Assembly: GCA_008632985.1 (NCBI GenBank) | Contig: QPGO01000021.1 | Coordinates: 372,001 to 436,000 of the forward strand | Reading direction: 5' to 3' | Source: Psammoneis japonica | Taxonomy: Eukaryota | Length of the DNA: 64,000 bases | Shown: one piece after another, positions 19,051-64,000 of the stretch | How the letters are laid out: each line of letters opens with the position of its first letter | Numbering within the stretch: position 1 is the stretch's first letter | Translations under genes and position numbers: made by a program | Notes under the pieces: generated by a model | Told to the model about the DNA's origin: nothing | Database searches by the model: none | What the model saw: only the letters and a program-made list of their open reading frames with translations

Positions 19051-19054
19051 AACT

Positions 19055-24165: not shown

Positions 24166-24169
24166 GAGA

Positions 24170-32619: not shown

Positions 32620-34745
32620 ACCTTTCATGCAAAATTCACCCATCTGCGCAGTTAAGAAAGACAACAATGCTGCCAACAAAGGGAAAGAGCAAAGAAAAAA
32701 TAAAAATGTGGGGGTGGCCTGCAACATCATGGGCATCGTTTTTTCTTGGTGTCCGTGGAACTGGAAGTGAGGCTGGGAGCTCATTTTTGAAGTCATGTGG
32801 AGGTGACCTTGCTGAGAACAACAGGTGTTTTCTGGTTTGGCAGCTTGCAGCAATGCATGAATCATGAGAGTTTTCTGCACTGTTCTTTGGTGGTGTTTGG
32901 CAACACTGCACCAATCTGACATTTTTTTCTCAAATGTTTGTTGAGAGCAATTTGTGCTGGCTCTGACACTTCCTCTTCCTTTTTGCCAAAGACAGAGAGG
33001 CACCTTTTTCACTTCATCTCTCCCACACATTTTTGCACCTCTTGACTTCCAATGCAAAAAAATTGGCAAGGCAGACTGAATGACTGAGAAAGGTGAAGGA
33101 AAGCTGGTTGCATTGCCTGCTGGTAAAGAGCAACCCTGCTAATTCTGGGAAGGCACTTTCCACCACACTTGGCTTTGTGGAGTCCGGCACAAGGTTTTGC
33201 TTGCTCTCCTCATCCATGCATGCTGCAGACTCCAGAAATTGAAATGTCTGTGAAGTTGTGCACTGACATTTGCACCAGCATTTGCACACATTTCAATGTC
33301 CCAACTGCTGGCAGAACCATCATAACAGCATTGTGGCACTTCCTCCATGTCTGCCCATTGATGCATCAAGAAGCATCTTCTGCTGGCCTGGCAAGCACTG
33401 TGCAGTGGGGGAGTGCATTGAAGTCCCTGGAGCTGCCATTCTTTTGTTGCTGGCACCAACCACAGTTGACCATGATGTTGCTTGTTTTGTTTTTTTGTTG
33501 TTGTCATTCTGCATTTCCACCATGGTGTTCAGGAGTGGAGTTTGGTGCAAGTTTGGAGTTTGCATTTTGTTTGTGTTCTTTTTCAGCAGTGGTTTTGCCA
33601 GGCAGCCCCATTTCTGCCAGGTTGTTTGCTGCCGCTGGTGACAAGGTGCTCCATTTGCCAGCTCAGGACTGGCCTCTTCATCAAAGGCCAATGTTGTCCT
33701 CTGTGCCAGCATTTTGTGAAGGAGAACTTTCATGTCAGAGTTTGCATGGGGCCGCTGCTGGAGGCACCCATGAACTCCATGATTGCAGGCATGCCAGTGG
33801 GCAGCAATCACAAAGCTTTTGATGTCAAGTGTCACCTTGCTGCTGGAGATGCCATGTGTTGGAAGTTCAATGAGCCACAAGCTGCACAGCATTGCTGGGC
33901 TTGTTGGAGGGGGGGGGCAGCCCACTGAAGGTGAGCTTCCTGACAGCATCAGGTGACTCAGCCAAAAGAGTCACATTCACCTGCAATTAAGGAAGATGGC
34001 AATGCTGCCAATGCTGCCAATGAAAACAAAGAAAAGCAAGAAAAAAAAAACAGCTGTGTTCACCAACAAAAAGATGGGTTCACCATTTCACATGTGGTTG
34101 TGAATGACACAAGAAGAAAAGCTGGGAGCCCCTCATTTTGAAGTGATGCATGGGGGGATGACTTCACCACAGCACACAAATCTGAAGAGTGTTCTGTGCT
34201 TTGCTTTTGGTGGTTGGCAACATTGTGGCAATCCAGTGCTTTTCTTGAGTGATCAACTGCACTCCACCACTGCAGCTGATTTTCATCTTTTTTGACAAAT
34301 GCAGAGAGATGCCCTCCTCACTTCTGCCCATTCCCAAGCTTTTGTGTCTTTTGACTTCAGTTGCAGAAAGATTGGCACAAGGAAAATCAAATGATTGAGA
34401 AAAACAGCACCAATGTGGTGCACCAGTCTGGAGAAACAACTCCACTTTTGGAAAGAGGTGGTGTGTTGTCTTTGCCACCCAGCTCTTTGTTTGTTCTTGT
34501 GGTGTCTGGGGGCTCGAGCTTTCGTTCTCGTTGTCTGCAGAAAATGAGATTTTGGGAGAATCATGTGCAGACATTGACACCAGCATTTGCACATTTCAAT
34601 GTCCCACCTGCTGGCAATGGGAATGGTGTGTGTGTGTGTGTGTGGGGCTGTCAACCACAATCCTCCATTGTTGTTTGTTTTGTTGTTCGTTGTTGTCATT
34701 TTATTTCGGCCATGATGGTGTTCGTGGGAGCGGATCTGGCGCAAG
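32620..34745 (+). repeat. Diverged ~0.8-0.9-kb tandem duplication (~32620-33550 vs ~33950-34745) in a TpA-depleted block starting ~31970
   Basis: Collinear matches: caatgctgccaa, gctgggagc...cattttgaagt, ttgacttc...attggca, accagcatttgcac...atttcaatgtccca(a/c)ctgctggca, gttgtcatt...atggtgttc. Confidence 0.7.
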
Positions 34746-34938
34746 AAGGTTGGAGTCGTCCTCCCATTGTTCTCGTCCTCTTTCGCAATGCCGCACGCGT
34801 GTCCAAAAGATCGCGCGTTTCGAAACGTGCATCGCGTTCCTGTTCCTCATTGTCTTGGCCATCTTCAATCTTGCTTGATCTTCATTATCAATCTGGATTA
34901 TCATTCTTTGCCTCTATGCGAAAACACGTTGTTGTGTA

Positions 34939-43747: not shown

Positions 43748-44110
43748 TTCGTAGACTGGTCCTTTTTTTCACTCTGTTGTGAAACGCCTCTTTGCCCCTG
43801 GGCAAGTGTCGGCTCCGCATCTTCAATCTCTCATGTCTCACATGTTCGATGTTGAACATACAGTAGAGTACGTGCGTGAAAAACCCGGAAAAGATTTGCT
43901 CAAAAAATTGAATGACGTCATCGCGTCTGACTTCTGGCCTGGCTGCCAGCTGCACAACGTTCACAAAGCACAAAAAGGCAACCACAGACCCCCTGCGGTG
44001 AACATCATCTCATAGACTGGTCCTTTTTTCACTGCCGTGAAACGCCTCTTTGCTCCTGGTTCAAGGGCAAGCATTGGCTTGGCATCTCTGCCTCATGTCT
44101 CATGTTGACA
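43722..44110. repeat. Local duplication of the PPR gene's 5' end and upstream region (~43722-43850 copied at ~43982-44110)
   Basis: ccacagac...ggtgaa(t/c)atcat(t/c)tc(g/a)tagactggtcctttttt...gtgaaacgcctctttgc...ctcatgtctca occurs twice. Confidence 0.75.
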
Positions 44111-44799
44111 GAGTCGGAGCGGTGGGCTGGTGTGCCTCTGACCATCCTCTTTTCTTGTGCAACATCGGAGATGTGGCACCTGTGCCTGCTGGTGTGTGAC
44201 ACGAGCAATGTTGTGAGAATGTTGAGCTCAGTTGTTGTCACAAAAAGCAGCAATGTTTGACCCCACCTGAGTGGAGTCCTTCAAAAATCAACAGCACCAC
44301 ACTGGCTGGGGCTTTCTTTTTGACAGCTGCAACGTTGCTCATTTTCTGTGCAGACAAAGTTTGCAGCACACCACAGCAGCAAAACTTGCTGTTCAGCAAT
44401 CCAAGCTGTGCCCTCTTTCCCCATTCCTTCCTTTTCTCAGCATTGCACCTCATTGGTCTCACAGATGTTCCTCACCACAGATTGTTGTTGCAAAAAATGG
44501 CTCTCTCATGGCACGAGGATCTGCACACAGCATTCGAGCAAGTGCCACCACTGCTTTTGCCAGAGGGCTCATGTGTCTGGCCACCACAAAGCCAGTGGTT
44601 TGAAAGAACCCTCAATGGCAATTTGTGTTGTGAGTGGTGTGTGCTCACATTCTTCATGTTGTTCCTCCACAGACAATTGCACCCACAGTGTCTTGACACA
44701 AAAAGAGAAGGCAGCAGCAGCACCAGTGCCAAGCATTTTTTTGTCCAAAGGGTCTCCCAGGGAGTGAAGGACAAAACAGGTGTGACAACTTTGCAAGCA

Positions 44800-47250
44800 A
44801 AAGTTTGATGTCTAGAAATGAAGATTGTGCCACAACATCATTGTCCAGAGCCAATTTGAAAGGGATCTCCCAATGCTGGAAAGGTTGAGGAGATCAAGAG
44901 GGCGGTGGTGGCACCAGCCAAACATGGAAAATTTGAAATGACTGGTGAGCCAAAGTGTGGGGTGATGTGAGGGGGGGGTGCTCTTGGATTTGGCAGGGCT
45001 CATCTTTCATCTGACTGTGGCTGCACTGCAGTCATTTGCACCACATTTTGTGCCAAGTGTGGTCATGAGCAGCTGTGCTCACATGTGCTCCTCAGTGGGT
45101 GGATGCTGATGTGCAGCTGGAAACAAAACTTTTTTAGCCAATGTGTTTTTGCAGGCTGGACAAGCTGTGAGCCTCTCTGACAGCAGTGCACACTTGACCA
45201 GCTGCTTGCAAGAGACAAATTTGTGCCATGTGTGAGGTTGGAGCAGCAGCAAATTCTGGAAGTGGGTTGGCCAAGATCTTGCACTCAGCCTTGTTGTCTT
45301 TGCTCTCCCACACCATCAGGTGCAACAGCAGCAGTTTTTGCTGGCCTCACTCACACACACCGGATGCCCCAGCACCAGTGCTCACACATGAGAGCTCAGA
45401 TGATGAGCATCCTTCTTGTGGTGTGCATGTGACGTGTCGTGTTTTTGAACAACTGCATCAAACTGCTGTGTGGAAGCTGTGGGCCACATGTTTCAGGAAA
45501 AAGAGTGTGCAGATGACATGAGGCATGGGAGGATCAGGGAGATCTTAATGTGTTGCTGTCAAAAATTGGCAATGGTGTGTCCCTTGTGTCAAGAGAGGGG
45601 AAAGGAGTTGGCAGCTTGGCTTGTCAACAGGGCTGAACTGTGTCATCATGCAAGTTGCTTGGGCAGCACCAAGCAACTGGCCAGAGACTGACACCCTGCT
45701 TGCTCACTCATTTCTGACAATGGCAGTGCCCCCCCTTTGCAGAACAGGGTGCTTGATGAGTTTTTGAAAAGTGTGCACTTTCTGCATGGCAGCTTGAGTT
45801 TGGTGCAGTTGGTGCCCCAGGGAATTCTTGACAGATCTTCCAGTGAAGAGTGCCTCTCAGGCTTTCATGACAGCAGGATTTTTCTCATTGTTTCCACAAT
45901 TGATGGGCAAAACACAGTGCCCATGTCATGTGCATGTCCAAAAAATGTTGCAAGCAAAGCCACCTGCTGAAGTCAAGTGCCTCTCCCCCAGGGGTTGGTG
46001 CTGGTTTCCAGCAGGAGATCCCTGACCAGGCAACAACCAGCAGTTCATGAGCAGACTGGCAGCATCATGAGGCAGAAGTTGTGTGGCTGGCTCAAGACCA
46101 AGAGGTGGGCTGATCCAAAGATGACATTTTGAGAGTGACTTGATGGAAGTGTTGATGATGCACCCAGCACAAGAAAAAGAAGGATCTTGCCAAAGTGGTC
46201 AGAGGACTTTGACTCTCAAGGCACAATTTTGGGTCTAGCTGCCAGGGGCACAGAGCATTCAGGAGAGCTCAATGGCATTTTTCTGGCAACCAATTGTGGG
46301 TGAACTGTGCCATTGCCTTGCCAGATGGCTCTGTTGACCCCCGCCAGACTCAAGTTGCTGCAGAATGACAAGCAGCCTGGCTGGCTGCTTGGATGGCAGC
46401 TGCTGATCTTCCCAGTGTTCTTTTGTGTGACAAAAGTGCAGCAACAAGGAGCACATTGCTTGTGCAGATGCACGAGGAAACAAAAGTCATTTGTGAAAGA
46501 AAACAAGCTCAGCATGCTTGGCACCAGGGTCAGACATTGGTTGGCAACAACTTGGGTCACTGAGAAGAAAGCAGTGTTCAAAATCAAGACTGAGGCTCAG
46601 AAAGGTCTCATCTTTGCACTTGTGATGTCAAGATGGTTGGCATGGTGACAGACGGGTCAAGAAGGCCACAGCCCAGCAAAAAGCTGTGGGGCAACACAGG
46701 TGCTTGTGTGGTTAAATCAAGTGTGCAAAAAACAAGTCCAAAAGTCCACCAGGCAGCTTGAGCAGGAGCTGGCACAAAGCAGCACACCCCCATCATGTAA
46801 ATTGCAGCCCACCAGGAAGGCAAAACAAAAGTGAAAATGTTCCACAGCACAGTGAGCACAAACCACCATGGCAGCAAGCAATGAAAAGTGCTCTGGAGAG
46901 CATCCCTGTCTTGACCCGTACACCCACGGTTGTTGAGGGACAGAAGGATGGCCTTCAGGTCAAAACTCACAAAAAACACAGATGATGGTGATGATGATGG
47001 TTGATGAACACGACATGAATCTGAAGTTTGTGGCATGTTTTAAAGAGCAAGTGTGTTCAAACCCATCCTTGAACAATGGAAGCAGTGGAAACAGTGTGGG
47101 TTCATTGTCAAGCAGTTTGCATGGACAATGTGGGTGAGAGCATCAGAAATTGTGAGGACATCCTGAAGATGTGTCTTGTTGAAAGTGTGGCTCTCACTGT
47201 GATGTTCATCTTGCCAATTGCGAGCATCAGTTTCCTGCCATCACAGAGCT
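44800..47250 (-). mobile_element. Highly degenerate, probably Gypsy-type pol remnant within the TpA-depleted block ~43870-47600
   Basis: Weak minus-strand echoes of RNase H (IVHAN; LLAAMVVC...VEHF...LVG) and of the integrase C-terminus (IFHVWL), in Gypsy order. Confidence 0.35.
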
Positions 47251-48103
47251 TTGGACCATTTTTGCAAGGAGATTCCTGCTGTTTTGGCAGCCATGTGAGG
47301 GGCTCTGAGCTTGTTGACAACAAGGGTCAGCAGGGGAAAGGAAAGGAAAGGAAAGGAAGGGCTGAACAAGGAAGACACCAATTCACATGGTGAGTTTCAG
47401 AATCAGATTGGCAACCGACTCTCAAAGCTTGGCTGAAGGATGCCAAGTTGGCTTGTGATGATTGTGGGAGCTCTGGCACATGCCGTTTGAGGGAGTCAAT
47501 GATGAACAGATCGTGGCTTGTGGCAATGTTGTTGTGAATGGCCTGAGCACGATGAGCAAGTCCTGTTGACAGAGGAAACGATCAAGACATTTCAGCAACA
47601 TAGCGAGAAACTGCATGCTCAGGACATGCGGGCGATGGAGATTACCCGTGAAATTATTGATCATTTTAAAGGAAGTCTCCGTGATGATGATTGCAGGGGC
47701 AGTGATGAACAGTTTTCCATGTTCATGTCCCTCGCCCATGCGGCCGACATTTGTACCGCCTACCCACTCGGACGACGCAAAGCCAGCACAAAAAGAAACG
47801 AGTTATGGTGCGGATACTTCTGCCTTTGGAAATCTATTCATGATAAGCTTCTATGCTGCAGTGAAAAGTCTCAACACGGAACACGGCACGGCCGGTTATG
47901 GCGTTGTTGTTTGACCGGTACGATTTGTGCGAAAGTGTCGGAGGAAAATACGAGCATCTTCTTTGTCGACTGAGTACAAGCATGATAAACCGAAGATGTA
48001 GATGTGAGAGAAATTGGTCGGTTATAGGGATTTGAAGCTACGTGTCATGAAAGAGATCAAACCCATGCACAGAGGAAGATACAAAAGTTGAGAGCTCTCC
48101 TAT

Positions 48104-49697: not shown

Positions 49698-50399
49698 CGT
49701 GCAGAAGATTATGGTAGAGATGTAAAAGATTCAGACAAGAATGAGAAGAGGAAAGTTCTGGCGAAGCATACAGTAACCAGAGAAAAAGAAGAAAGATATC
49801 TTTTTAGTACAGTGCATACAGTGCCGGCAGCAGAGACCTAAAGATCCGACGTCATCATTCTAAAAGGAAGTCCTCGTACGAGTAAAAGTACGTAGGGCCC
49901 TCTAGACAAGCTGTGCCATTCTTCTGCCAGAAAGTTGTCAACACATGGCAGCATTCTGAGTTCTCAGTCGCCACTTCTTTTAGCTCGAACTCGGCCAAAT
50001 AGCTCGTGATTTGCATGATTTTTTTTTGAATTTCACCGTGCTTCACCAGCTTAAAAACAGCAAGCCACAAGTCTGTGATGGAGGTGCTGGTCCATCTGCC
50101 AACTCTCATCTGTCTCATGTTTGTTGTGTGTCAAAGAGGCCACACGTGCACCAAATGTTTGTGGACAGACCGCTGCGTTTTGGAGAAATGTCAAGATTGC
50201 CGTCATCGCAATGGGGCCTGACAGTCTCATTTTCGTGCACGATTGGGTGTGAACATGAGTGGTTTTTGCATTCAAAAATGGACACCATCAAAAATCTTGT
50301 TCAAATGCCTTGGCAATTTGGGTGAGAACATGGGGGCAGCTGCCTTGGCAAGAATTGATTGACTCCTCTGTCATGCACATCTGCCTGACACTCAATTGA

Positions 50400-51200
50400 G
50401 GCAGGCAGTTGCTGCCTGGGGTGCTTGATTGGTCCTCACTCTGTCATTCAATGCTGACCAGCAAATGAAGCCCTTGAAGCAGCTTGAATTTCTGGGGGCA
50501 GGTGCTCCATTGTCATGCAAAAAATTCTCGCTCGAACAAAACTCTTGAAATCAACTTGCTCAGCACTGCTCCCCTGCAACAAAATGGTTTCTTGCTCAGC
50601 ACTTAAAATTTGTCTGAGTTGAAAGCTGGGCCATTCAAGCTCAGCTGACACATCACTCTTCAACATCAACAAATGCAGCAGGAACTGCTGGCCTCACCAC
50701 ATGTCATGACAGCTCCTTTGGCGCGCCAATCTTCTGTGACAAAAGATTTAAGAGTGCGCCTTCCATCACATCAAAGTCTTCCAACTTAAATGCCGGCAGT
50801 GAACTGACCGTCACATCTGATTCCACCATGTCTTTTTCAACGCGCTTTCTCTGACAGGATTCTGCCAATGCCACTTGATTGAATTCTGCCATGTCCAAAA
50901 GGAGATTGTGCTTCTGATGATCATGAAGCTGCCATGCCAGGGCTTGTGTGCTCATAATTTGCACATTGCCAAGCACTGCTCTTCCATCCTGTGTGCCATG
51001 TCGACTGGCTCCACTTGCCAGTTCCTCTGAGTCCGAGTTGCCTTCCATGACTGCAACATTTTTCAAAGTTGTGAACCCATCATAAAATGCCAGATGAGCT
51101 CTTGCATTGACATTGGCAATGCCACATGTCTGCAACACATTGTCAACATCTGCTGCGAGTGCTGACATCACCAAAGCCTGAGCTGGTGCTGCTGCCATGC
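50400..51200 (-). mobile_element. Degenerate Ty1/Copia (CoDi-like) gag fragment
   Basis: VLQTCGI...DGFTTL...GRAVLGNVQI...QALAW.L.DHQK...RKRVEK...EDFDVMEGALLNLLSQ resembles the diatom Copia gag N-terminus as I recall it. Confidence 0.6.
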
Positions 51201-51469
51201 TTCCTGTGATGTGAGGATGACAACATGTTGTCCACCATGGATGAACAATGTGACTGTGAGACTCACACAATGGGTGTGGAAAGGAGACTGAATGCTCCAC
51301 GAGAACCATGGAAACAGGTCCACATGGTCAACCGGCAATGAGAGGCCACCCCGCGCCATTTTGTCTGAATGAGCAAATGCTCTGGGCACGAATTAGAGAA
51401 ATGCCAGGCAATGTTGAAGAAGGCAATGGAAGAAGGTTCAAGCAGAGATTTTACTTCACCCAGCTGCAT

Positions 51470-54080
51470 TTTACTTTAGCCTGCTTGCATCATGATGAAG
51501 ACAAGTTCTGGAGTTGTCAGCGAGAAAAGCACTTTCAAATTGTTCATCCAAATAGACTGGTCATTGCGCCAAACCAAATTTGAAATGGATGGGGGGCCCC
51601 AGCATTTTTTTGATGCATCTCACCTTGGTCTGCTTGCATCATGATGATTGGCACGTTGTGGAGTCGTCAGCGAGAAAAGCACACGTGCTTCGTCCAAATC
51701 GACTGGATGCACAGCAGTTTGCATGGCACCAAATTTGAAACAGATGTTTCTACAGTGCGAGCTTCTGTTCCCACTGTAACACACAATGACTTGACATGCA
51801 TTTTACTTTGGCCTGCTTCTTTGCACATGGGTTCACGGGTTTTTTGGGACTGGTGCCAGCAGCTTTGGATGCAACCTTCTTCACAAATCCTGCCAAGGCG
51901 CTCGTTTGCTTTTTGCTGATGGATGATGTGTTCTGCCGTTTCTTGTGCATTGCAGCTTGAAGACCAAGACCTGCAAAGTGAGGCTGAGTTCGTTCCTTCT
52001 TCTTGTTCTCCAGTGGCTTTTTCATTCCGGCGTCTGCTTCCATCTTCCTCATTGCATCCAGGCATGCATTTTGCACGGCATGACAAACATTGTGAAAAGC
52101 CAAGGACTTGTCGTCATGAAGTTGGATCATGTGCCACTGGTCATCAGTCACAATGTGTTCCAGCAGCTCCATGGCGGCTTTAAACTTCTGTGGCTCTGCC
52201 TCCTTGTTCAGAAACCGCAGCTGCAAAAGCCGCTCCTTGGATGGTGATGAAAGGTGTCCATGCTGCTTGAACCAAGTGAGCAACACATGTGAAGACACTC
52301 CTGCACCTGTGCCATTCACCAAGCCATCCACTTTCTCCTGCAGTGTCAGCTTCTTTTTCTTCTTCTTCTTTGAAGACTTGTCACTTGCAAACCGTGTTGA
52401 GAGCAGTGTTGTGGCAATGCGAGGTTTTGGCTTTGGCACCGAGGCCGCCACAGGCTGAGTCGCAGCCACTGACTCGTCAGAATCAATGCAAGGTCGAGAA
52501 GCAGCCGGCACGTCATCAGCATCTGGTGTGCCGCAGCATTGGCAGCCACACCGTTTGGAGTGGAGGCAAGGTTTGCATCAACAATGACACCACAATGGAT
52601 CACGTCATCTTGATTGGACATTTCGAAGAACTTGAGACGTGTCCGTGGTGTCGCCATCACGAATCTTCGCTTCCGACGCAGCATGCTCCAACAAGGTGCG
52701 TGTGATTTCATGGTTCTGACAAAGCTCCTTTGAAACTTCAGCATGATGCCGAATCACAGCAGCCATGCAGGAATGCAAGAAGGGCCGCAGCTCTCCACCT
52801 TTTAGAAATTGAGCAAGGGAGTCAGAGATCATGTGCAATTTTTCAATGAGACGTTCAACGTCCTCTTGTGCATGGCTCCCAAGACATTCCAAGTTCGGAG
52901 CACATTTCTTGGTGGGAGTGTCATCCCAGCCCATCATCGCGTTTGCCGCCAGAAGTGTGAGTTGCAGTGCAATGCGTTTGCAAGTCTTGCCATTGGGAGC
53001 TCCTGGCACCCATCCAACCCGAGCGTCCGCTTCTTCAACAGATGCTCCTTGACGCGAATTCAAGAAGGCAGCCACACCAACTCAAGTGGACTTGGAAGAA
53101 TGATCATTCTGCAGGACCGGATTTGCCTTGCTTCGAATGATGCTGGTCAATTTTGCTGCAACATGCCGGTCACTCACGCTCCACAAGTCTGGGAAAGTGC
53201 ACTTGTGGAGCTCCTTCTCCATGCCGTCTGGACGACAGAGACCTTTCTCACAAGAATGGAAACACACAAAAGCACGGCAGAGATCAAAGAGATGGGACTT
53301 CTAGTTTGGTGGGAAGAGGAGCCCATGCAAATCCACAGTCTTCGGCTCACACCACGTTGCTTCCAAATTCTCATGACACAAATCCCAGAACCACTCATCA
53401 TGCCATTGATGCCTCACTTCCCCTCCACGTCCAGCAGCCACAGCGCCCATCAAAATCCAGCAACGCTGCTGAAGAGGGCCGTTGTTCATCATTGGACAAT
53501 TGCATTGCAGAACGAGAGCAAGAAGCAATGTCTTGATGTCGTTTGCGAGTGCACCATTCTCTCGTCTCAACATTGAATTTCTGTCTGTCACAAGAATGGC
53601 ATTTCGCTGCTTGGCTCAAACACATTCTGAAGCCACGTTTGGAGCCAGAGCCAAAGTCCTTTTGTCAGAACACTCCATGCTGAGGAGGTTGGCTTTGTCA
53701 GTGGCCTTTGCCACATCTTTGAACAGAGGCTTGCACCACTTGTCCTCATCTTCCCAGTCAGGGTGCTTGGGGAACTTCATTTTTAGTGCTTCTTTGACCT
53801 TTCCAAAAATTCACTGCTTTGCATCAACTCCCAATGGCCCGTTGGAGGGATTGTCGTGCCAACAGATGGGCTCACATGACAAGAACTTGCTGAAGCGCAT
53901 CACAAGTGTCCTGAGGTGGCATCCATCCACATGATGTTCCTCCAACCCGTGAAACGGCTTGTCTTGCTTTTTGTCTTGAAACGCATCAAACATTTTGATT
54001 GCAGCCTTGTTGCCACTTGTGGCAGAAGGGGCCCCAGACGCCTCAGTGATTGGCTCCCCAAGGGTCAAAGAGGGCATGCT
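51470..54080 (-). mobile_element. Degenerate Crypton-like tyrosine-recombinase DNA transposon; short direct repeats at its 3' side (~51480-51585, ~51630-51740)
   Basis: Minus-strand YR-type motifs GRGGEV, (Y>H)SSKST(R>*)VG, ARVGW and KT(Y>C)KR, with no RT associated. Confidence 0.55.
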
Positions 54081-54342
54081 GCATGGCTGCTCTGTGGTTG
54101 CGGGTGGCTTCTGTGGCTGCGTCTGTGTTTTTGTGAGACGACATCTCCTCCGTGCTGTGTCTCTCGTCTCGAGCTTCAGCACGGCATCACAGAAGTCTTG
54201 CGGATGATGGTGAGTCTGATGATGTAAAAATTCTGGTGCGGTTCAAGGTCATGTGTGCACACAGACATGGTGTGTTCCATTGGCTTCAACTTTGAGAGAA
54301 CTTTTGGGTTGCTTCTTCTGAAAGTTGCCAATTCTATGCCGG

Positions 54343-54408
54343 AAAAAGGGAGGGACTCGAACCCCCGACCTCGTCCTTCTTCGGCGCATTTCTGCCACTC
54401 AATGGGAA
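54343..54408 (-). pseudogene. tRNA-derived sequence (tRNA pseudogene or SINE head) with B-box
   Basis: Minus strand reads AGTGGCAGAA...GAGGTCGGGGGTTCGAGTCCCTCCC-TTTTT: D-loop-like, T-arm (GTTCGA) and oligo-T. The anticodon arm is not canonical. Confidence 0.45.
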
Positions 54409-54504
54409 TCTTTCGAAAATGACCCGTGACGTAAAAAGCATAAAATGGTTGTGGACGCCTGTAGAATCTACACGTTTTTGTACTGAAACTGTTGTGTTCA
54501 CACA

Positions 54505-54613
54505 ATTTGTGCAAAAATAGACTTGACTGTTGTCGGGTCAGGTGCTGTTTTTGCAAATGCATTGAAGAAAAACACACCTGATCAGAAAACAGTCAAGTCC
54601 ATTTTTCGCAAAG
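54505..54613. repeat. Imperfect ~110-nt inverted repeat (hairpin)
   Basis: tttgtgcaaaaatagacttgactgtt...tcaggtg pairs with cacctga...aacagtcaagtccatttttcgcaaa. Confidence 0.7.
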
Positions 54614-55789
54614 TTAAAATTCACTGAGGACAGACAGACAGACTTTTCAATGATTGTCTTGGTGCTGTTCTGCACATTTCCACGTAAATGACTCTACAGC
54701 GCGAAAGATTGCTGTTGAGCTCAGACAGAAGATGATGATGCGGCAATGCATTGTCTCATTGCTGGTGGCACCAGCAACAAGCAATGAGAAACTCAAGGCT
54801 GGATCGTCGAGCAGAGGCATTTTTTTGAACAGCTCGAATTTTTCCTGTTTTCTCTCGCACTTCGCCCGTGTTGTTTTTTGACACCTCTGAGCACCCCCAA
54901 AGCACTTGTGAGTGTGTCTGGCCCCCATCAGGGCTGTTGGACCTCCATGTGAACTGCGCTTGCCAACCTTCAAATGCCAACTGTCGGATTCGGTGCGGTT
55001 GTCATTTTCAATGAACCGCCATTTTTCGCCAAAATCGCGCTGCTTGGGGGAGACAAGCCACAACTTTCCAGGAAAGGCTGACAACTGGCATTTGACTGGC
55101 TGCAGACACATCTGCAGTTGTCAAGCCAGAGATCCTGCATGGTCACAACCATCGCCAGCACACTCTGTGACATCTTTCGAAGGGACAAAGTTCGACCTGT
55201 CGCTGAATTTTTTTTTGGCAAAAGTGTGCGCGTTCAGTGTTGTGCACCCTTTCTTTCAAAAAAAATTGTGAGCTTGCAAAAAACAGACCTCTGCTTGCCA
55301 ATCCATCCTCAATCTGTCATCAGTGCAAGCCGCGCCACTTTTCTCCTGCACGGATTGCGCTCTTGCACAGAGGGCGCCCCTGCACGGGGCGCATGCCTGG
55401 CCGGCGATTGCAATCTGCTCGTCCGACCGTGCAATTGCTTCACAATTGCAGTCAACCAATCGCTGCTCCACAGCAATGCAGTCAACCACTTGCAATCTGA
55501 TTGCTGTGGAAAACTTTGCAAATTGGCCGGCACTGCGAGCAAGCATTGAGCGGGCAAATCGCGCTTGAGTTCACATGGTGTTGACACTCCCTCTCGAATG
55601 AAGAATCTGCCAACCGCAAAGCAACTTTCTGGCAGACTCAAATTTAACTGCAATGAGCCCTTTGGTGAGGATGTTGGTGTGTTGCAAGTGACGCGTTCCA
55701 GCTCTGGGTGGGACCTCGTGCTGCTGCACTGTGACATCAACAGTTTTTTGGATCACGTCGCATGTCGCGCACGCACATTTCTACGAGTC

Positions 55790-56720
55790 ACATTCTACGA
55801 AATTGTTTCATGCTCCCTGTTTTGCGAAGCCAAAGGCTTTCTGTTTTCAACATTTGTGAGAATGAAAATGCACTGGGCACATTCTTTGACATCTGAAGAA
55901 CACACCCGGGCAAACTGTCAATGATGTGCTCCAAGCATGAAGGAGGAGACACGTTCGTAAAATTGCCTCTTTTTCTGTTGGCAATCATTCACATTTTCAT
56001 TGCAGCACAAATTTGCTGCGCAGCTCACATTCTGCGGGCCCAATGTCACACGGAGTCCCACCTGGGACTGGAACCCATCAAGTCTGTTGCAATCTTGCAC
56101 ACAACAACTCTGTTCGGTTTCAGTTGCGAGCAAAACCAGCAACACTTGGCTGCGCAGTGCTTGGACCTTGGCGTCATTTGTCCAGGTTCCATGTGAGCCA
56201 GAGTCAAAGCCCCAGCATTGTCCTCCCACATGGCAGTTTTGATGGCATTGGTGGTTCCCAGACCAACTCCAATGCCTTGAAAAATGGCTTGCATGGCGCG
56301 AAGAAAGGGAAGGACGGTTTTCATGCAAGTGGAGAGAGCGTTGTGCTCTGTGCTCTGCCTCCCCATGGTTGAGAGTGCGCAATCTCGGGTGCAAGCTTGC
56401 TGGACCAGATGACAGGACAGACATGCTCCAGATGCAGGTGGGAATTTGTGTGACGTTGGGCCTGTGGAATTCTGCATGCAAGCTCCGCAGTGAAATTGTC
56501 AGGTCATGAAAATGTCAATGACAGCCAACAGAAAAAGAGGCAATTTTGTGAACGCGCAAACTCATCCACGATTTAAGCACATCATTTTTCACTTGGCTGG
56601 GTGCACTCTTCAGACATTGAAGAATGCACCCAGTGCATTGTTGTTCCCAAAAATTCTTTAAAAATAAAACGTCTGGGGCTTTGCAAAACAGCGAGTCGTC
56701 TGGAACAATTCTGTGGGAGA
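55790..56720. repeat. ~215-bp diverged inverted repeats (55790-56002 and ~56504-56720) flanking a Copia RNase H fragment
   Basis: The reverse complement of the left arm matches the right arm: atgaaaatgt.aatga...gccaacagaaaa.gaggcaatttt...agcacatcatt...cttcaga...aagaatg..cccagtgcatt...gcaaaacag. Confidence 0.75.
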
Positions 56721-58450
56721 AAACATGCAGAAATGCACACGAGAAACATGCGGCTGATCACAAAAAACACTTGTGTCACACATTGGCACTGCAAGCTCCC
56801 ACCTGAGGCTAGAGTGCATCAACAGTTTGAAGTGCAAATGACAAATCCTGCACAGCTCTTGATGCAAGCTGGGTCTTGCTTGTCTTCATGAGGCCACAAT
56901 CCAGCAAAACAGGAGTCAACAAACATGTCAATGTCAAAGTCTCCGGATGGCTTGAGGACCAGACCTTCCTCAAGCGTGCCCTTCAGGTGTCGTCCGATCC
57001 TTTCAAGGGCTGGTTCATGTGAGAGCAGTGTGGACTGTGAACAAAGCAGGCTGCTGAGCTTGTGGCACAGGGGATGTGGGTGTCCAGGCCTTTGGCAGAC
57101 AGCCTGCATTGAGGGCGTCGATGACACATTTGGCTGGGCCACTCTGAGTCAGTTTGACAGTGCCGTTGTTGGTGTCACGGTCCATGTGCACACCCGAAAA
57201 TCCCATGATGGAATCTTTGACTTTGACGTGCTCTTGTTTTGGTGAAAAGAAAAGTGTGTCGTCAATGTGCACAAGGCAGATGACTTCATCTCCGACACAA
57301 ATGGACAAGGATCCACGTCATCTTCAAGTTTTGATTTGAGATGAAGAAAGAAATTGCGCGGTCCTTGTTTGAGACCACAGATGGTCTTCTTGAGTTTCAG
57401 CACTTTGCCTGGTTTTGAGCATCTGCAAGGCATTTGCACGAATGTGCCAGAGCATTCGCGCTCTTCAGGTGTCATGGAATCCCATTTTGGGTCCTTGTTG
57501 ATTGGTGCATGGACAAAAGCCACAACATGGTTGACTTGTTTGGTGGAGAGTTCAAGAATTTGAGACAATGTGTGCATCCGCCAAACTGTCATCCAATTGA
57601 CAACCTGAGCACAGGCATCAAAACAATTGACACCTTCCAATTGCTTGTCACCACAGACGCAGAAGCGGGCTTTTTGTTTTTGGATTGATCCATCGGGATG
57701 CCATTTGCATTTGAAGGCCCAAGTGCATGTGTTCATCCAGTCTTGGCGGTCAACTTCTTCCCAAGCATCTTTGCCACTGAAGAGGGAATCAATTTCAATG
57801 TCACAAGCTTTGAGATGGGCTGCACAATCTGGTCCACTCATTGCTTGCTCCCAAGTCAGATTGTCAGCTCAGCATCAGCTGCGAAAGCCAGAGGGTGCAT
57901 TTCGTTGAGTGCACCGTGTTCTTGATTGGTGTTGTTGTTGAAGACATTGCTCACAGTGCACACAAGTCCTTGGATCAGAGTGCATTTGTCATGCTGTCCC
58001 ATTGCAATGCTGTCAAAAATTGCTTGTTCAGTGTTTTGGACTTGACAGAGCATTTGGGATTCTTGTGTGCAGTTGGCGATTTGTTGGTTGGAATGCGGAT
58101 GTTGGCCATCATGGCCTTGATGAGTCAATCCAGTTTCTTGATTGTGCGGCCACTCTGTGTGTGAGTTTAAGGAGTCAGAGCATTCGGAGTCTGTTGCATG
58201 GACTCGGCTCCCTCTGAACCAAAACACAGATCATCAGGCAAGTCGTGATGGTCAACAAGAGACAACAGTTTGTCATCACTGTTGTTGCTGAATTCATTGA
58301 TTTCAACTCCCTCTGGAGCATTGAGTTGCATGGATCTGGCACACCATCTCCATCCAAATTCACAAGAAGAGGACTGTCAAAGCAAACCACATGGATTGAG
58401 TCACATTTCAAAACTTGATGCCAACCAAGCAGGTTTTGAAATGTCACACC
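56010..58450 (-). mobile_element. Degenerate Ty1/Copia (CoDi-like) pol, RT + RNase H, interrupted at ~56480-56810
   Basis: WAFKCK..PDG..K.KARFCV.GDKQ, LKKTICGLKQGPRNF, CLVHIDDTL (YxDD site), RIGRHLKGT, FAGLWPHEDKQDP, EDNAGAL and MTPRSKH. Confidence 0.9.
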
Positions 58451-58973
58451 TCAGAGCTTCTGTTGCTGATTTTGATGATGTGTTCATGATCAAGGCAGCA
58501 GTGAAGGCAGGAAAGGACACATGCTAGTGTGGTGTTGTTGCTCACTAGAGCAGCACCACTAGATTGTGGTCTGTGTTGTGGCTCTCCTGTGCTGGGTGAA
58601 GGAGCCTGTGCAACTTGTTCATGCAGCAATTGCACTCATGGGCATTCACCTTGGCATGGCTTTGACACCCCACATGCTGAGTCTACCAAGTGTTGCCTCG
58701 AAGGCATCATGCTCTGCTAGCTAGAGAGGGCCCAGAGCACATTAGTGAGGATGGCATCTCAGTGAAATGCTGTCAATTCGAAATGAAGATTGCTCGATGT
58801 CGCATGGTGAAACTAACCTTCTCGTTGCTGCTGCGGAGCGCTTTGTAACAAATGCATGAGTGTAGCACAGTAGGTTGTTAGATCAGATTTTAGTAGTTGG
58901 ACACCCTTTAGCCGAGATCTAAGCCACGAAGTGTCCAAGGGGTCAACAAAATGTTCGTATAGAAAAGTTTAGT

Positions 58974-61612
58974 TCATTTAGAGCTACCTGCAGTAGGTTT
59001 CACCAGCTCGAGAAGTTGAACACCTTTCGGACCAAACAATTCTTCGCAATTGCTGACATCAACGGTAATGAGATGATCGTGAAGACGGCACTGGCATTCT
59101 CCCTTATTCATGCACTGTTTCTTCGCGAAGTAAACGTTTTCAGCGATGGGGCCTGGGGTTGCAGACGCTGTGCTCTCCACTGGATATTGAACCAGAACTC
59201 GAACCATGTCGCGCTTTCGCTTCTTTCCTGTCTGGTTTTGTACATTGATGCCCGGGTTCTTCTTTCAGGGGTTATATCGGCCTCTTCGATACCGAACAAA
59301 GCTTCTTTGGTTTCCTCCCAAAGGCCACGCAACTCAATGGTCTTCAGGCTCGAAGGAGGCTTGCTGCTGCCTCTATTCTCGCGATAAAACAATTCAGGTA
59401 CAACTGTGCGCAGTGCTTCCGGCTGGTTGAGCTTAAACTTCAACTTCGCCTGCAAAGCAGCGAAACGAAAATCGTTCCAGGCACGCGTCCGCATAAGAAA
59501 CGCTACATCAGGTCCAAACAGTGTATCAGGGAAGCAGAATGGTGCAACCGCACCTTCGAAACGAGCGTTAACAGCTGCCTTTATCCACTGCATGGTGTCA
59601 AAAGGCGCTCTGCACTTGATCGCAAGCACGCCATAAGAAGACCACTCTGGTACCATGAAATTCACCAAAGAAGAATCTTGTCCAACCTGAGATCTCAGTA
59701 TTTTCTCGAATCTAGTTTGGATAGAAGGGAGCAAGAATTCTTCAAAAACATTGCCCCTCTCCGAAGATGACGTGGTGCTTGCAATTTTCTTTGAGATGGA
59801 ATCTTGCAGTCCAAAAAAAGCGATGCTTGCCTGGATAACCAGGGTCTCCCAAATAACAGCCTCTACAAAGTCAGCCCCAGTATCGCTTTCCATATGCACG
59901 GACGCGATACCCGCTTCGATCATGTCCGCAGCTTTTTTCTTCACCAGTTGGCGGCTACCACCAAACGAGAATTCAAAGGTGGCTCGTCGAAACGTTTCCT
60001 GCGCTTCCGACCATTCTTGGCCCGCCATGTCAAACATCTTGCTGACGGCTGAGAAGGCCGATTTATCCTGCAAACTCCATGTAAACCGCCTGTCCTCGTC
60101 CTTTGAGTTTGCAGTACAAACCTCGATATATCGATTCAACGATCTAATAAGAGGTTGCTCTGCGAGATCGAAGTTTCCCCGAGGTTCACGCTTAGACGTT
60201 GTTTGCTGCCGTTCAATATACGTTTCAATAAACGTTGCTACCCACCGTGGTCGTCCTTTCAGCCAGTCACCAGCATGCCGGACAAGGTCATCCTTCACAT
60301 CGCGTAGATCAAGGAACTTGCTCATATACTGAATCACGTCGTCTCTGGACATATTCTTCAGTCCAACGAAACAAAAAGAGTGATCCTTTAGATTTGGTTT
60401 GACCACCAAAGATCTTGCCGCAGCTTTGTATGCTTTGATTGACATACCGGTCCCACTAAAGCAAGGAAAATGGATTATCTCCATTGTCAATTGTAGGTTA
60501 GTCAAGCCTTTGAGGAATGCAGAGTAAGCCGACCGCGGCTCATTTCCATCTGTGGACAAGAACACGCCCTTCAGTTCCGTCAAGAGCACCTGTGCCTCGT
60601 CCATGAAGCAGCTATGCCGGTCTAGCTTTCGAGTCTCATCCATAGAACACTCCAACTTGTTTTTGACGATCTTCCGGGAGACATCCAGAAATATATCGCA
60701 TCCCAGGACATCTTCTGGAAATAGCTGAAGTAAAAGCCATTCGTAGCAGCTCAGGCCTCGTCTTCGCGTTGACAACAGCACCGTATTGATCCCGTGAAAC
60801 ACTTCTGTCCGCACACAGAGCAACACCTGCAGCATTTTCTGAACGTCCTGAAGATTTTTTACACTGAGTGCTTTACGGTCGTCATGGTCTGAGGGGATTG
60901 GTATCATCTTCTCAGCACAATGTTGGATCAAGAATGCGACATCTCTTGAACCTGGATTGTATTTTGGGTCAGCCGCAGCAGACAGATAAAAGCCGTAGTT
61001 GTGGGAGAGATATTCAAATATGGTTCTGGTTTTCCCAGCACCAGATGTTCCGTACAAAGCGATAGGACCTATTTTCTGGGACCTTTCAATATAATTGTAA
61101 CCACTCGTTTTCTTGTGCTCCTCGTTTTCTAGGTCGTGAAGAAGTAGAGACGGTCTCTTTTTGTTCCCAATAAGGGCCGGTACACCGGTTTCGTTTCCTC
61201 TCCAATAACATTTAAAGGCGGCTTCATCGCTGATTTCGAAGCATGGGAGCGACGGCGCATTGCGATCCCATTGTTGGAGATGATCTTTTACCAGGTGTTC
61301 CATACAAAGGGGTTGCGGCGCCTGTGACACCTGCTGCAAGCCTTCGTGTTTCTGCTGCAGAGTGACCACAATGAGAGGACTTTCATCAGTTGTTGTATCC
61401 AAATCTTTCACTAGCATTCCAGGGCGGAGAGGGTCGTCTTTTGTCGAGTCGGCACCCGCAGCGAAGACCTTGAGCTCGGGAGCGGCACAAGCAAGACGCT
61501 CGCCCCATTTTGTCTTGATCGCATCCTTCAAATCATACACATCAGCACCATCTTGCACTTTCACTTTCGCCACCGGTGCACCGTCGAGCTTGTACCAAAT
61601 TTCGATCGTCAT
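58974..61612 (-). CDS. Crinkler (CRN)-like protein: ubiquitin-like N-terminal domain, P-loop NTPase, REase-fold C-terminus; apparent frameshift near 59210
   Basis: N-terminus IWYKL...VYDLKDAIK...APELKVF...PLIVV, Walker A GTSGAGKT, Walker B CFMDEAQ, and FPDTLFGPDVAF...LQAKL. The C-terminus continues in ORF 58974-59207. Confidence 0.75.
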
Positions 61613-61812
61613 TCGTCATGGTGCCTGATCGCGACACACAACAACACGAAAACACACGGCGAGGCGCGCGGGGCACGACCGGGCTCCTGCGGTTTACAAT
61701 AGCCCACGTTCCTACCGTACTGCACACCGTGAGATCCACGCGAGCTTCGGCACGGCACGCGCGAACCTGCATCAACCCGCGTGCGTCATTGGAACTGTGG
61801 ACCAGGTTGCAA

Positions 61813-64000
61813 GCGGCTCACGCCGCCCGTCTTGTTCCTTCTCCTGCGGCTCTCTATGACAGTGCTATCTAGAGATCTTCTAATGATGGACTGGAATGGC
61901 TTTACTAGCGGATGCGCAAGCCTCATTTCCAAAAACCCAAGCTGGAACGGCAGGGCCAGAGGGCAGGAGAGGTGGGAGCATCAAAAACCATCTAGCGGCT
62001 TCTTGCTCTTTGTTGCTCTTCGGAAGAATGAGTGAAGCAAACGAGAGAAGAGCAGAAAAAACCGTCATTTGCTCGCCAAGTTCGCGCAAGCACGTTCAAA
62101 TTTGAATTCAAATGGTTTGCATGACCCAACGGTCAAATGCGGGTCATTTGCCTCGTCGCACTGCACAAGGTGGGCGGCTCACGCCGCCCGTCTTGTTCCT
62201 TCTCCTGCGGCTCTCTAGCGCCATCTAGAGATCTTCCAATGATGGACTGGAATGGCTTTGCTGGCAGATGTGCAAGCCTCATTCCCAAAAACCCAAGCTG
62301 GAACGGCAGGGCCTTCCAGCAACCACCCACAGTGCCGTGCACTTTTGGGAGGGTGGGTGGGTTGAGGCAGGAAGGCTGTGGTGATCAGGCGTCTTGAGGA
62401 TTTTGAGGGACGTCAGCATTGGGGTGGAGGACGAAGTCGCCACCGGCGAGCATGTCGCGAGCGAAGTTGCGCATGACTGGTTCTGCTTGCAAGTGCAGGT
62501 GTCGCAACATTTCGTCGGATCGCCAGCGGCCTGAGAGCCGAATGAGATCGGTGTCTGCGCGGGCACAAAGGAGGGCCATTGCTCCGGCGGCACGAAGACA
62601 CCGAGCGGCAACATCTCGGGTGGTGAAGCCGAGATTAGCCGGACCGAGAGCAGTGACAGCATTGCGCAGCATGCTGGTGATGTCAGCCGGGAACACACGA
62701 CGCCAGGTGTTGTTTTGAAAGTGAACACCAAGGGGTGTGTCAGGGAGCGCACCGTGGGTGCGCAAGTGTTGGACACGGCGGATGAGGGCTTGAACCGGGC
62801 ACAGGTGGGGGTGACCGGAAAGACCAAGCCCTGGAACTTCGCCTCGCACTCCATTTTTCTGGGTGGCAAAGGTGAGAGTGGCGAAGTCTGCTGTGTCAAG
62901 GTGTGCAAGTGGAACTTGCATGGCACCCAGGTGAGCACCACCAGACGCAAGCCGGACATCGGCGAGACGAAAGGGGGTGGTGTCTGATGGTGTTGCGGTG
63001 CACTCGCCAGGCCGTGACAAGAAGAAAAAGGCAAGTGCAATCATTTCAGCAATGGCTTGTGTGCCCGGGTCATTGCTGAGGGCTGCGGCGGTCATAATCC
63101 ATTGCAGCACTGCAATTGGGACCGGTTTTACGCGGTCTGGGGGTGGATCCTGCTTCTTGTAAAAGCGGACTTGCCGGGTGAGGTGGAAATCCATTGTGCC
63201 TTGGGATGTGTGGCGTGGATCCGGGGACCCCATTGCAGCGAACGTTTGGCCAACCGAACGTGCGGCATCTTCAGCGGTTCTTCCACGGACGGGATTGCCC
63301 ATCGGCGCGAGGACTCCTGTGCGGTGTCGGTGCAAGAAGACTTGGAGGAAGACAACAGGGTCGTCAACGTCTTCGAGGAGTGGGTCAATGGCCAAAGAGG
63401 AGCAGAACTCTCGCCATTTGTCCCAATGGGTGTTGGCGGCGGAGGCTCTGGAAGAGGTGACGCCATGCTGGACTGCGCGTTGAGCAGCATTGAGATCACG
63501 CATGAACTCAGTTCTGGTGGAGGCGTCCAGAGACGCCAGGAGAGTTTCTGCAGACAGTGCAAATTAAAGTGGTGCAAAAATTCACGGTTGGACAAAGACT
63601 GCAGTCGTGAGGCATCGTCAGCGGCAGTGTTGAGGCATCCAGGCAGGTGGTCATGCAACCCCAAGTGGCGATGGCAGCGTTGATGGCAGGATTGGCATCG
63701 AAGCAACCGGGAGGCGGGTTTGACGGCAGTGGTGGCACCTTTACGTTGCCAACACATGGTGCCTGAATTGTCGGTGTGTGAAAGACTGGCACGTTCACGG
63801 ATGTCAAAACAGTCGGCGGCGCCGAAGGACTGAATGACACTGCCGGCAAGTTCCAGGTCTGTGTTGGTGATGGGACCGCGTGGGTTGGAGAAAGTGGAGA
63901 GTTGACTGCTGACACTTTTGGGAAAGGGCAGTCGCCACACTGCAGGACCCGCATCTCTCTGTTGACAGCGTCTGCAATTGCCAAAACGGAGAGTGGCTGC
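61813..64000 (-). mobile_element. Ngaro/DIRS-type tyrosine-recombinase retrotransposon, 3' part, with split direct repeats (62174-62313 and 61813-61957)
   Basis: The RNase H ORF (ITNTDLELAG, TDN, WQRKG, NTAADDASR) overlaps a YR ORF. A repeat-spacer-repeat arrangement follows, consistent with B1-A2-B2. Confidence 0.85.
62385..63503 (-). pseudogene. Tyrosine recombinase of the Ngaro/DIRS element; open frame but the catalytic Tyr reads His
   Basis: FFFLSRPGECT, QKNG, CPV, ARCLRAAGAMAL and GRWRSDEMLRHL, with CAC at 62499-62501 where Tyr is expected. Confidence 0.85.

Follow-up and report, generated by a model that had tools for sequence, protein, structure and literature searches.

How can a retrotransposon lose almost every TpA dinucleotide, and with them the tyrosines of its enzymes, with its reading frames left open? 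The question is raised by a 64,000-nt stretch of the genome of the diatom Psammoneis japonica (GenBank assembly GCA_008632985.1, contig QPGO01000021.1, positions 372,001 to 436,000 of the forward strand), referred to below as the window, in whose coordinates all positions are given. Judged by sequence and coding content, the window closes, on the minus strand, with the 3′ 2.2 kb of a retrotransposon of the Ngaro type, which encodes a tyrosine recombinase (YR); its 5′ part, including the reverse transcriptase (RT), lies past the window end. As we describe below, the element was probably altered by a hypermutation of TpA to CpA or TpG that acts after insertion on domains of silenced mobile DNA. 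The parts of the element are as follows (ORF, open reading frame; o/e, observed-to-expected ratio):

62385–63503, minus strand: YR ORF, 372 aa from its ATG (stop-to-stop frame to 63563); inactivated
63504–64000, minus strand: C-terminal (RNase H) part of pol; the frame runs from 64000 to a stop at 63128 and overlaps the YR ORF
62174–62313, minus strand: terminal repeat B1 (inner), inside the TA-erased zone; 2 TA, both in CTAG
61958–62173, minus strand: segment A2 between the B copies, 216 nt, 1 TA, o/e 0.07; A1 lies beyond the window
61813–61957, minus strand: terminal repeat B2 (outer, 3′ element end); 6 TA, o/e 0.81; not erased

Across 62320–64000 (1681 nt, GC content 0.582), TA occurs only at 62636, 63095, 63129, 63160, 63565 and 63742, which makes 6 sites where base composition predicts 73 (o/e 0.08). 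CG remains abundant over the same interval (111, o/e 0.82), and CA (135, o/e 1.61) and TG (171, o/e 1.44) are in excess. Both coding parts carry the signature, with TA and CG o/e values of 0.09 and 0.89 in the YR ORF and 0.08 and 0.73 in the RNase H part. An earlier inspection of the letters by a model (hereafter the sequence-only reading) had reported 6 TA in ~1.7 kb with abundant CG and both ORFs open, and we reproduced these counts and ORFs. For comparison, loci of the same family were fetched from metagenomes (n = 80); all 80 have TA o/e values of 0.38–0.88 (median 0.64), with a median CG o/e of 0.88 and a median GC content of 0.53. At the family median the interval would be expected to hold 46.8 TA (Poisson P(≤6) = 8e-14), and with the lowest value seen in the family, 0.38, finding 6 is still improbable (P = 7e-7). 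The TA deficit is thus real and far beyond chance. Strand-biased mutation might be read from the coding-strand GC skew of the block (−0.216), but this reading was dropped, as the skew is native to the family (median −0.16). A partial signature was seen in a single locus of the 80, L007 (1852 nt, metagenome; TA 0.38, CG 0.48, CA 1.39, TG 1.55), the YR of which retains both conserved Tyr residues.

To follow the missing TA sites at the codon level, codon-threaded alignments of 77 YR and 61 RNase H homologues were used. These place replacements in the focal copy at strongly conserved positions:

62499–62501, minus strand: catalytic Tyr of MLR-Y-LH replaced by His335, TAC>CAC (the plus strand reads GTG, so the minus strand reads CAC); Tyr in 74/74 homologues
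63000–63002, minus strand: box-I Tyr of LRPGE-Y replaced by Cys168, TAC>TGC; Tyr in 77/77 homologues
63015–63017, minus strand: Leu of FFFL-L-RPGE replaced by Ser163, TCA, which fits TTA>TCA; Leu in 45/47 homologues
63665–63667, minus strand: RNase H Tyr of H-R-Y replaced by His, CAC; Tyr in 60/61 homologues
63647–63649, minus strand: RNase H Tyr of H-D-Y replaced by His, CAC; Tyr in 54/61 homologues

These are five of the six residues that the sequence-only reading had named as altered in the way TA>CA/TG predicts (the YR Y>H, RPGE Y>C and FL L>S changes, and HR Y>H and HD Y>H in RNase H), and the alignments contain no intact homologues with His, Cys or Ser at these positions. The sixth, M(Y>C)WQRKG, is poorly supported: of the 61 sequences, 42 have Phe in this column, 11 have Tyr and 2 have Cys. 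Less conserved Tyr columns, with Tyr in 32/77 and 35/77 YR homologues and in 35/61 RNase H homologues, also read His or Cys in the focal copy. A single Tyr (TAC) is left in the focal YR ORF, compared with 2–11 (median 7) in 47 homologues. On the evidence of these replacements, the focal copy is a dead member of a family that retains the catalytic Tyr. The further proposal that inactivation proceeds mainly by removal of tyrosines is unproven, as Tyr accounts for 4 of the 26 departures from the YR consensus, and its extension to RT YxDD motifs does not apply here, because the RT lies past the window end and the family motif is FVDD. RT motif C in the related pol ORFs reads V-F-V-D-D-F, without the Tyr of the YxDD position.

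The same alignments show what replaced TA. Among 12 columns with TA in at least half of the homologues, the focal copy has TA in 1, CA in 4, TG in 3, TT in 2, CG in 1 and GC in 1, and columns of every other dinucleotide are kept at 53–78%. CG columns were kept in 31 of 41 cases, with 6 changed to TG or CA. Because CA (4) and TG (3) both appear on the coding strand, both strands have been changed.

Erasure does not extend to the end of the element. The 140–145-nt direct repeats B1 and B2 lie 3′ of the YR stop, 216 nt apart, and are 91% identical; over 140 aligned nt they differ by 8 transitions, no transversion and one 5-nt gap. Four of the differing sites have TA in B2 and CA (2) or TG (2) in B1, and two have CG in B2 and CA or TG in B1; the remaining differences are one TG (B2) versus CG (B1) and one TC versus CC. 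Moving outwards along the element, TA o/e is 0.32 in B1, 0.07 in A2, 0.81 in B2 and 0.56 in the 200 nt between B2 and the start codon of the neighbouring gene (61612). Erasure therefore ends at ~61958, within the element and ~350 bp from that start codon. All three TAs that survive in 61958–62313 sit in TCTAG. Complete protection of the CTAG context was considered and rejected, since one CTAG of B2 is mutated in B1 and any protection is not absolute. The neighbouring gene is:

59108–61612, minus strand: intact ORF of 834 aa, the N-terminal domain of which is of Crinkler type (PF20147, E = 5e-5, narrowly below the cut-off)

The start of this ORF and the outer end of the Ngaro element lie ~200 bp apart. 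DNA ~92% identical to its region occurs in contigs of metagenome runs X3, X4 and X8, two of which are labelled sediment. An unmutated copy of the element was not found in X3, X4 and X8, where matches comprised mainly the gene at 58.9–61.3 kb and short pieces near 63.2 kb.

The signature recurs along the window, beyond the interval that the sequence-only reading had picked out. The TA o/e of the whole 64 kb is 0.35, because the window is a mosaic of erased blocks and normal genes: genic 1-kb bins have TA o/e values of 0.42–0.75 and CG values of about 0.8–1.3, and seven blocks, together 27.8 of the 64 kb (43%), have TA o/e values of 0.04–0.10 with CA and TG at 1.4–2.05. CG o/e is 0.14–0.35 in five of the blocks, 0.48 in that at 49.9–58.7 kb and 0.80 in the focal block.

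9801–11950: TA- and CpG-erased block; TA 0.07, CG 0.35
16451–19700: TA- and CpG-erased block; TA 0.07, CG 0.25
23001–27700: TA- and CpG-erased block; TA 0.04, CG 0.14, CA 1.89, TG 2.05
31951–34900: TA- and CpG-erased block; TA 0.07, CG 0.26
43801–47750: TA- and CpG-erased block; TA 0.06, CG 0.19, CA 1.86, TG 1.76; single-copy depth; no recognisable protein
49901–58700: TA-erased block, genome repeat; TA 0.08, CG 0.48; holds a Copia-type RT remnant
61951–64000: focal TA-erased block with the Ngaro-type element; CG 0.80
57152–57868, minus strand: Copia-type RT remnant, 239 residues without a Tyr; RVT_2 match at E = 1.5e-5, which misses the Pfam cut-off

The Copia-type remnant is rich in Cys, His and Trp, a composition that fits TAY>CAY/TGY (Y, pyrimidine) plus CGN>TGN. 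Most differences between the repeats inside 23001–27700 are CA<>TG doublets, which make up 14 of 25 transitions in one pair; this is expected if ancestral TA or CG had been resolved independently in each copy. Mobile origin is documented by retroelement remnants in two blocks and is presumed for the other five. When the seven blocks were searched with Pfam (75 stop-to-stop ORFs of ≥110 aa), only the sub-threshold RVT_2 match and a weak HTH_74 match were obtained, and comparison of the window with itself by blastn gave no long similarity among blocks. For two ORFs of the 49.9–58.7 kb block the ESM Atlas returned no usable match (best score 0.77); a lead to hAT dimerisation from the same source (0.75) was dropped, as it lies under the level that shuffled proteins reach. 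A homologous-protein search with 52806–53573 (plus strand) gave 0 matches.

Contigs of the data set X1 offer a second view of these blocks. Word depth in X1 over the 43.8–47.7 kb block is 61–63 (single copy, ~60), and summed contig depth, which is not a copy number, is 180–41245 for the 49.9–58.7 kb block and 718–1466 for the other CpG-richer block. One 12.6-kb X1 contig covers 44001–50082 (6082 nt) with 2 differences, and X1 contigs over 44–64 kb differ by 351 transitions versus 91 transversions. Host genes with normal TA lie between the blocks, among them an ice-binding-like/adhesin-domain protein and a sterol-sensing (Patched/NPC1-like) protein encoded at 28040–29593 (plus strand) and 20133–22886 (plus strand). 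The host is recognised as a diatom by a further gene:

38072–40198: cullin, 77–85% identical to diatom cullins (Odontella, Seminavis, Phaeodactylum and MMETSP diatoms)

The window contains a single N, at 7548.

The few TAs that survive indicate which context was attacked. Block cores (25.2 kb) hold 83 TA, compared with 1179 in the 32.3 kb outside. Among the 83 survivors, TTAA is 5.75× enriched, CTAG 3.6× and CTAA/TTAG 2.65×; ATAC/GTAT and ATAT are absent (16.5% and 7.5% outside, respectively) and GTAC stands at 0.29×. Expressed per kb, with approximate outside rates taken over ~32 kb of unmasked sequence (R, purine), the contexts fall into three classes:

RTAY: ~12 per kb outside, 0–0.8 per kb in blocks
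YTAY+RTAR: ~20 per kb outside, 0.9–3.1 per kb in blocks
YTAR: ~5 per kb outside, 1.3–3.3 per kb in blocks

The survival of YTAR together with the near-total loss of RTAY would make 5′-TAY-3′ the likely target, that is, point to a preference for a 3′ pyrimidine. Relative to the 80 related loci, the focal block has 18.6 fewer YTAY+RTAR per kb; YTGY+RCAR, which a change on the TAY strand would produce, is up by 14.7 per kb, and the opposite product, YCAY+RTGR, by 5.6 per kb. Tyrosine codons are themselves TAY.

We then compared TpA loss with CpG decay, for which the sequence-only reading had asked for TpA o/e to be plotted against CpG o/e among copies of transposable elements (TEs) of different divergence. 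TA is saturated in all blocks, and CG ranges from 0.14 to 0.80 between them. In 500-bp bins of the window, TA is below 0.15 in 50 of 128 bins, in which CG spans 0.00–0.87 (median 0.23) and reaches at least 0.6 in 8. Conversely, TA stays under 0.3 in 33 of the 34 bins whose CG is less than 0.4 (the remaining one lies at a border), and the 69 bins with TA of at least 0.4 have a median CG of 0.97. CpG loss thus never occurs here without TA loss, and TA loss occurs without CpG loss. The four o/e values of the pyrimidine–purine dinucleotides sum to ~4 in the window, as expected if TA and CG both pass by transitions into CA and TG. The focal block, with AT>GC changes alone, has a GC content of 0.58; sequence in which both processes ran has ~0.48. 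TpA loss is therefore separable from CpG decay, as had been claimed, and appears to be the faster of the two; as a rough estimate, it was at least tenfold faster than CpG loss in the focal block (TA at ~12% of the family median, CG at ~80–93%). The order of depths fits the order of ages, the CpG-depleted block at 43.8–47.7 kb being single-copy and the CpG-richer blocks lying at repeat depth.

Open reading frames say little about age under such a process. A TA>CA/TG change cannot create a stop codon: TAY becomes CAY or TGY, NTA becomes NCA or NTG, and across a codon boundary the change is T>C at a third base or A>G at a first base. The stops TAA and TAG themselves turn into CAA, CAG or TGG, or into TGA, which is still a stop. 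Consistent with this, the six frames of the focal block contain 64 stops in 3358 codons (19 per 1000), 56 of them TGA, compared with a median of 32 per 1000 in the related loci, and non-coding frames are open for 92–221 codons. Because TA>CA/TG cannot make stops and removes TAA and TAG, the open ORFs are no evidence of youth, and the argument that the element is young because its ORFs are open fails; all six frames are unusually open. Relative youth is better supported by the absence of transversions between B1 and B2, the lack of a frameshift and the retained CpG.

The identity of the element rests on several lines of comparison. Protein sets from metagenomes and transcriptomes contain 777 homologues of the 372-aa ORF, which are ~380 aa long and reach 72% identity. 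An AlphaFold model built from 48 aligned sequences (predicted local distance difference test, pLDDT, 84.5; predicted template modelling score, pTM, 0.77) was compared with the PDB by Foldseek, and the top 13 matches were Cre recombinase (E = 2e-6 to 2e-5, TM 0.52–0.67), followed by Xer and phage integrases. The ORF thus encodes a tyrosine recombinase, its modelled fold being Cre-like. A sequence profile of the YR alignment gave 0 matches in the PDB at E ≤1, and Pfam matched neither the YR ORF nor the RNase H frame. Four intact pol ORFs and two YR homologues likewise gave no RVT, RNase H or Phage_integrase match in Pfam (E ≤0.1); as even intact relatives are unmatched, the family represents a divergent protist lineage of Ngaro.

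The RNase H frame aligns with the last 150–175 residues of 820–980-aa pol ORFs that lie directly 5′ of YR in related 6-kb metagenome contigs; its best blastp match among 76 ORFs of related loci has 58% identity over 154 aa (E = 4e-55). A pol-ORF profile from these loci matches HIV-1 RT weakly (E = 0.0019), and the related 6-kb loci have the order gag-pol-YR. When 304 ORFs of related loci were compared with the window by tblastn, matches were restricted to 62.4–63.9 kb, and one unbroken alignment of 393 residues covers the YR frame without a frameshift. The homologue consensus extends 5′ of the ATG at 63503, which aligns with Arg (63504–63563, minus strand); the native YR start codon was thus probably further upstream and has been lost or displaced in the focal copy. 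In three related metagenome contigs of ~6–7 kb (L008, L017 and L002), the first 240–350 nt recur ~5.9–6.1 kb downstream at 85–100% identity, in L008 and L017 at the contig end. Circular forms or tandem copies may account for these contigs, as may an assembly that wrapped around at the A/B repeats of complete elements.

Ngaro elements are described as having A-pol-B-A-B terminal repeats, and DIRS elements as having inverted terminal repeats and a Dam-like methyltransferase (MT) domain (PMC3783388). A DIRS1-like MT domain between RNase H and YR would find no room here, as the pol frame overlaps YR at 63128–63563, and a search of 58000–64000 for inverted repeats found none except one 25-nt pair at 72%. 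The B-A-B-like repeats and the lack of room for an MT domain therefore indicate Ngaro rather than a DIRS1-like element. The initial assignment to Ngaro/DIRS can thereby be narrowed to a YR retroelement of Ngaro type, with a Cre fold, B-A-B repeats and no MT domain. With Ngaro it shares the gag-pol-YR order (in its relatives), a Cre-like YR, the YR/pol overlap, the 3′ B-A-B repeats and the absence of an MT domain, and the focal copy differs in lacking the catalytic Tyr, in the FVDD motif of its family and in not being recognised by Pfam.

Taken together, the data are best accounted for by hypermutation of TpA to CpA or TpG that took place after insertion and was limited to domains of silenced mobile DNA, an explanation that we regard as probable. 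In this genome lineage, almost every TpA of the element, on either strand, has become CpA or TpG through one transition, with CpG and the remaining dinucleotides left close to normal, and the element was killed as its catalytic Tyr became His, its box-I Tyr became Cys and two RNase H Tyr became His. CpA and TpG are therefore the common sink of two processes, of which TpA erasure saturates first and CpG decay, presumably by deamination of 5-methylcytosine (5mC), follows more slowly. The process would act on chromosomal DNA in a domain-limited manner, stopping inside the element near the 5′ end of a gene and sparing the flanking genes. TAY would be preferred, with one change per site, since the product is no longer TpA. 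By analogy with a hypermutation described in another alga (see below), the chemistry would most likely be conversion of A to inosine, which is then read as G, and the enzyme a TadA/ADAT-like deaminase that is brought to silenced foreign DNA; the process itself can be held with more confidence than this proposed adenine deamination at TAY.

Several observations weigh against hypermutation after insertion. The direction TA>CA/TG rests on distant homologues (best 72% identity) and on the B1/B2 pair, and B1 and B2 of an Ngaro element need not match at insertion, so that their differences are no strict proof of later change. The product asymmetry from which strand preference is read uses heterogeneous homologues as its baseline and is rough. 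In the 75-ORF scan, five of the six other blocks lack a recognisable TE protein, which makes their TE origin presumptive, and no DNA transposon was found among the blocks, so that element class does not argue against RNA or cDNA editing specific to retroelements. X1 probably stems from the same sample as the window assembly and is hence not independent.

Hypermutation of chromosomal DNA could also proceed by another chemistry, such as 5-hydroxymethyluracil:G mispairing, biased repair or a polymerase error in heterochromatin. TpA is self-complementary, and A>G on one strand is indistinguishable by sequence from T>C on the other. We nevertheless consider such a chemistry unlikely, because near-complete conversion with a single change per site fits an enzyme better than replication error, and because the TAY preference recalls the U-A-C context of the anticodon loop in which TadA-type deaminases act.

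Still less likely is that the copy arrived dead, its RNA or minus-strand cDNA having been hyper-edited before integration by an ADAR/ADAT-like adenine deaminase. Such editing would accord with the fact that both blocks with identifiable coding remnants are retroelements (the Ngaro element and the Copia RT at 57152–57868), and a 5′-U preference is typical of adenosine deaminases on RNA (10.64898/2026.01.13.699255). It would, however, require both RNA and cDNA to have been edited to give CA (4) and TG (3) on the coding strand, and it leaves unexplained that erasure stops inside the element (0.81 in B2 versus 0.07 in A2) and that whole blocks of 2–9 kb, one of them single-copy, are erased up to sharp gene borders. 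The corresponding process in the chlorarachniophyte Bigelowiella natans was, moreover, measured on integrated DNA in vegetatively dividing lines. A border within the element, changes on both strands and the domain pattern thus favour action on chromosomal DNA over RNA or cDNA editing.

That the family is intrinsically TA-poor by selection on codon usage, UA-cleaving RNases or polyadenylation signals, with no mutagenesis, is very improbable: host genic 1-kb bins are lowish (0.42–0.75), but all 80 related loci have TA o/e values of at least 0.38, non-coding A2 is erased as well, and the loss of the catalytic and three near-invariant Tyr residues is something that selection for function cannot give. 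Equally hard to credit is a sequencing or assembly artefact in which a long-read assembly consistently gave T or G for modified bases (5mC or 6-methyladenine). Nanopore data are prone to systematic errors at methylated motifs, and both affected dinucleotides could carry base modifications, but X1 contigs of even word depth (~60) and up to 315 kb show the same erased block (2 differences over 6082 nt), 83% of the sampled words of 59000–64000 are present in X1, and the erasure is >90% complete and codon-consistent, with repeat copies that differ by CA<>TG doublets as real independent mutations would.

The erasure has practical consequences as well. With 43% of the window erased and almost none of it recognised by Pfam, the TE content of diatoms may be badly underestimated, and long spurious ORFs in erased blocks may be annotated as genes. 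A scan for TA o/e <0.15 with CA+TG >1.5 would locate such regions in any genome.

How does this hypermutation compare with known systems? Fungal repeat-induced point mutation (RIP) likewise represents a DNA-level dinucleotide transition hypermutation that kills transposons and leaves skewed blocks between normal genes. Its C>T changes fall mostly on CpA, so that TpA arises, GC drops and stop codons appear. The direction in the focal block is opposite: TpA is removed (TA 0.08, CA and TG 1.4–1.6), GC is raised (0.58 versus ~0.48) and no stops are made. One erased block is at single-copy depth. RIP leaves TpA in excess and CpA/TpG in deficit, and the skew seen here (TA 0.08, CA 1.61, TG 1.44) is the reverse. 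CpG decay through 5mC fits the six other blocks (CG 0.14–0.48 with TpG and CpA in excess), and TE methylation in the CpG context has been described for diatoms (PMC2806351). As the cause of TpA loss in the focal block it is excluded by a CG o/e of 0.82 and by the 31 of 41 CG columns kept. APOBEC3 and ADAR share the deaminase-type, context-specific transitions that kill retroelements; they act on cDNA or RNA before integration and with strand asymmetry, whereas both strands and chromosomal domain borders are involved here. ADAR is regarded as metazoan. ADAR prefers a 5′ U (10.64898/2026.01.13.699255, Discussion).

The closest counterpart is B. natans, in which mutation-accumulation lines showed two integrated viral regions mutating at ~6e-7 per site per generation, with 230 of 231 mutations being A>G or T>C, all at TpA (virophage, 20/20; nucleocytoplasmic large DNA virus, NCLDV, 210/211) (10.64898/2026.01.13.699255). 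In the same work, RT and DDE domains were over-represented among TpA-depleted coding sequences, and the proposed cause was an ADAT2-like adenosine deaminase (10.64898/2026.01.13.699255). Shared with the window are TpA>TpG/CpA transitions in foreign DNA and clusters of 1-kb windows with TpA depletion and CpA/TpG enrichment; the features of the B. natans type found here are A/T>G/C changes at TpA and clustering in 2–9 kb blocks with normal genic bins. The two cases differ in host, a chlorarachniophyte (Rhizaria) versus a diatom, and the accessible preprint text does not mention diatoms. They differ also in degree, the NCLDV being 1.8-fold depleted in TpA and the virophage undepleted, compared with retrotransposons that are >90% erased here, and in evidence, mutation rates having been measured in B. 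natans and the process here being known from its sequence signature. A literature search found no report of TpA-specific hypermutation in diatoms, and a mutation-accumulation study of Phaeodactylum tricornutum names CG, CC and TG as mutagenic contexts, TpA being unmentioned in the text available (PMC6604790).

In its sequence features, the signature described here matches the TpA hypermutation of B. natans, which is known from one 2026 preprint, and extends it to a different major lineage. We tentatively propose, and hold less firmly than the process itself, that diatoms, like Bigelowiella, may possess a targeted defence editor, a kind of 'reverse RIP', which would turn A into G at TAY on both strands of silenced foreign DNA, within chromatin-domain borders and soon after insertion, independently of cytosine methylation decay and roughly tenfold or more faster, stripping tyrosines without making stops and leaving long-open dead ORFs and relics that profile searches miss. 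The accessible preprint text on B. natans contains nothing on CpG, on 3′ flanking context or on tyrosine; beyond it, the diatom window adds that TpA is erased before CpG, that TAY is the likely preference, that the border follows chromosomal context and not the element ends, and that tyrosines are lost with frames open. If targeted, the process would be a second, phylogenetically distant case and a candidate for a widespread defence of marine protists, and its occurrence in both Stramenopila and Rhizaria would, if true, suggest an old system of the SAR (Stramenopila, Alveolata and Rhizaria) lineages.

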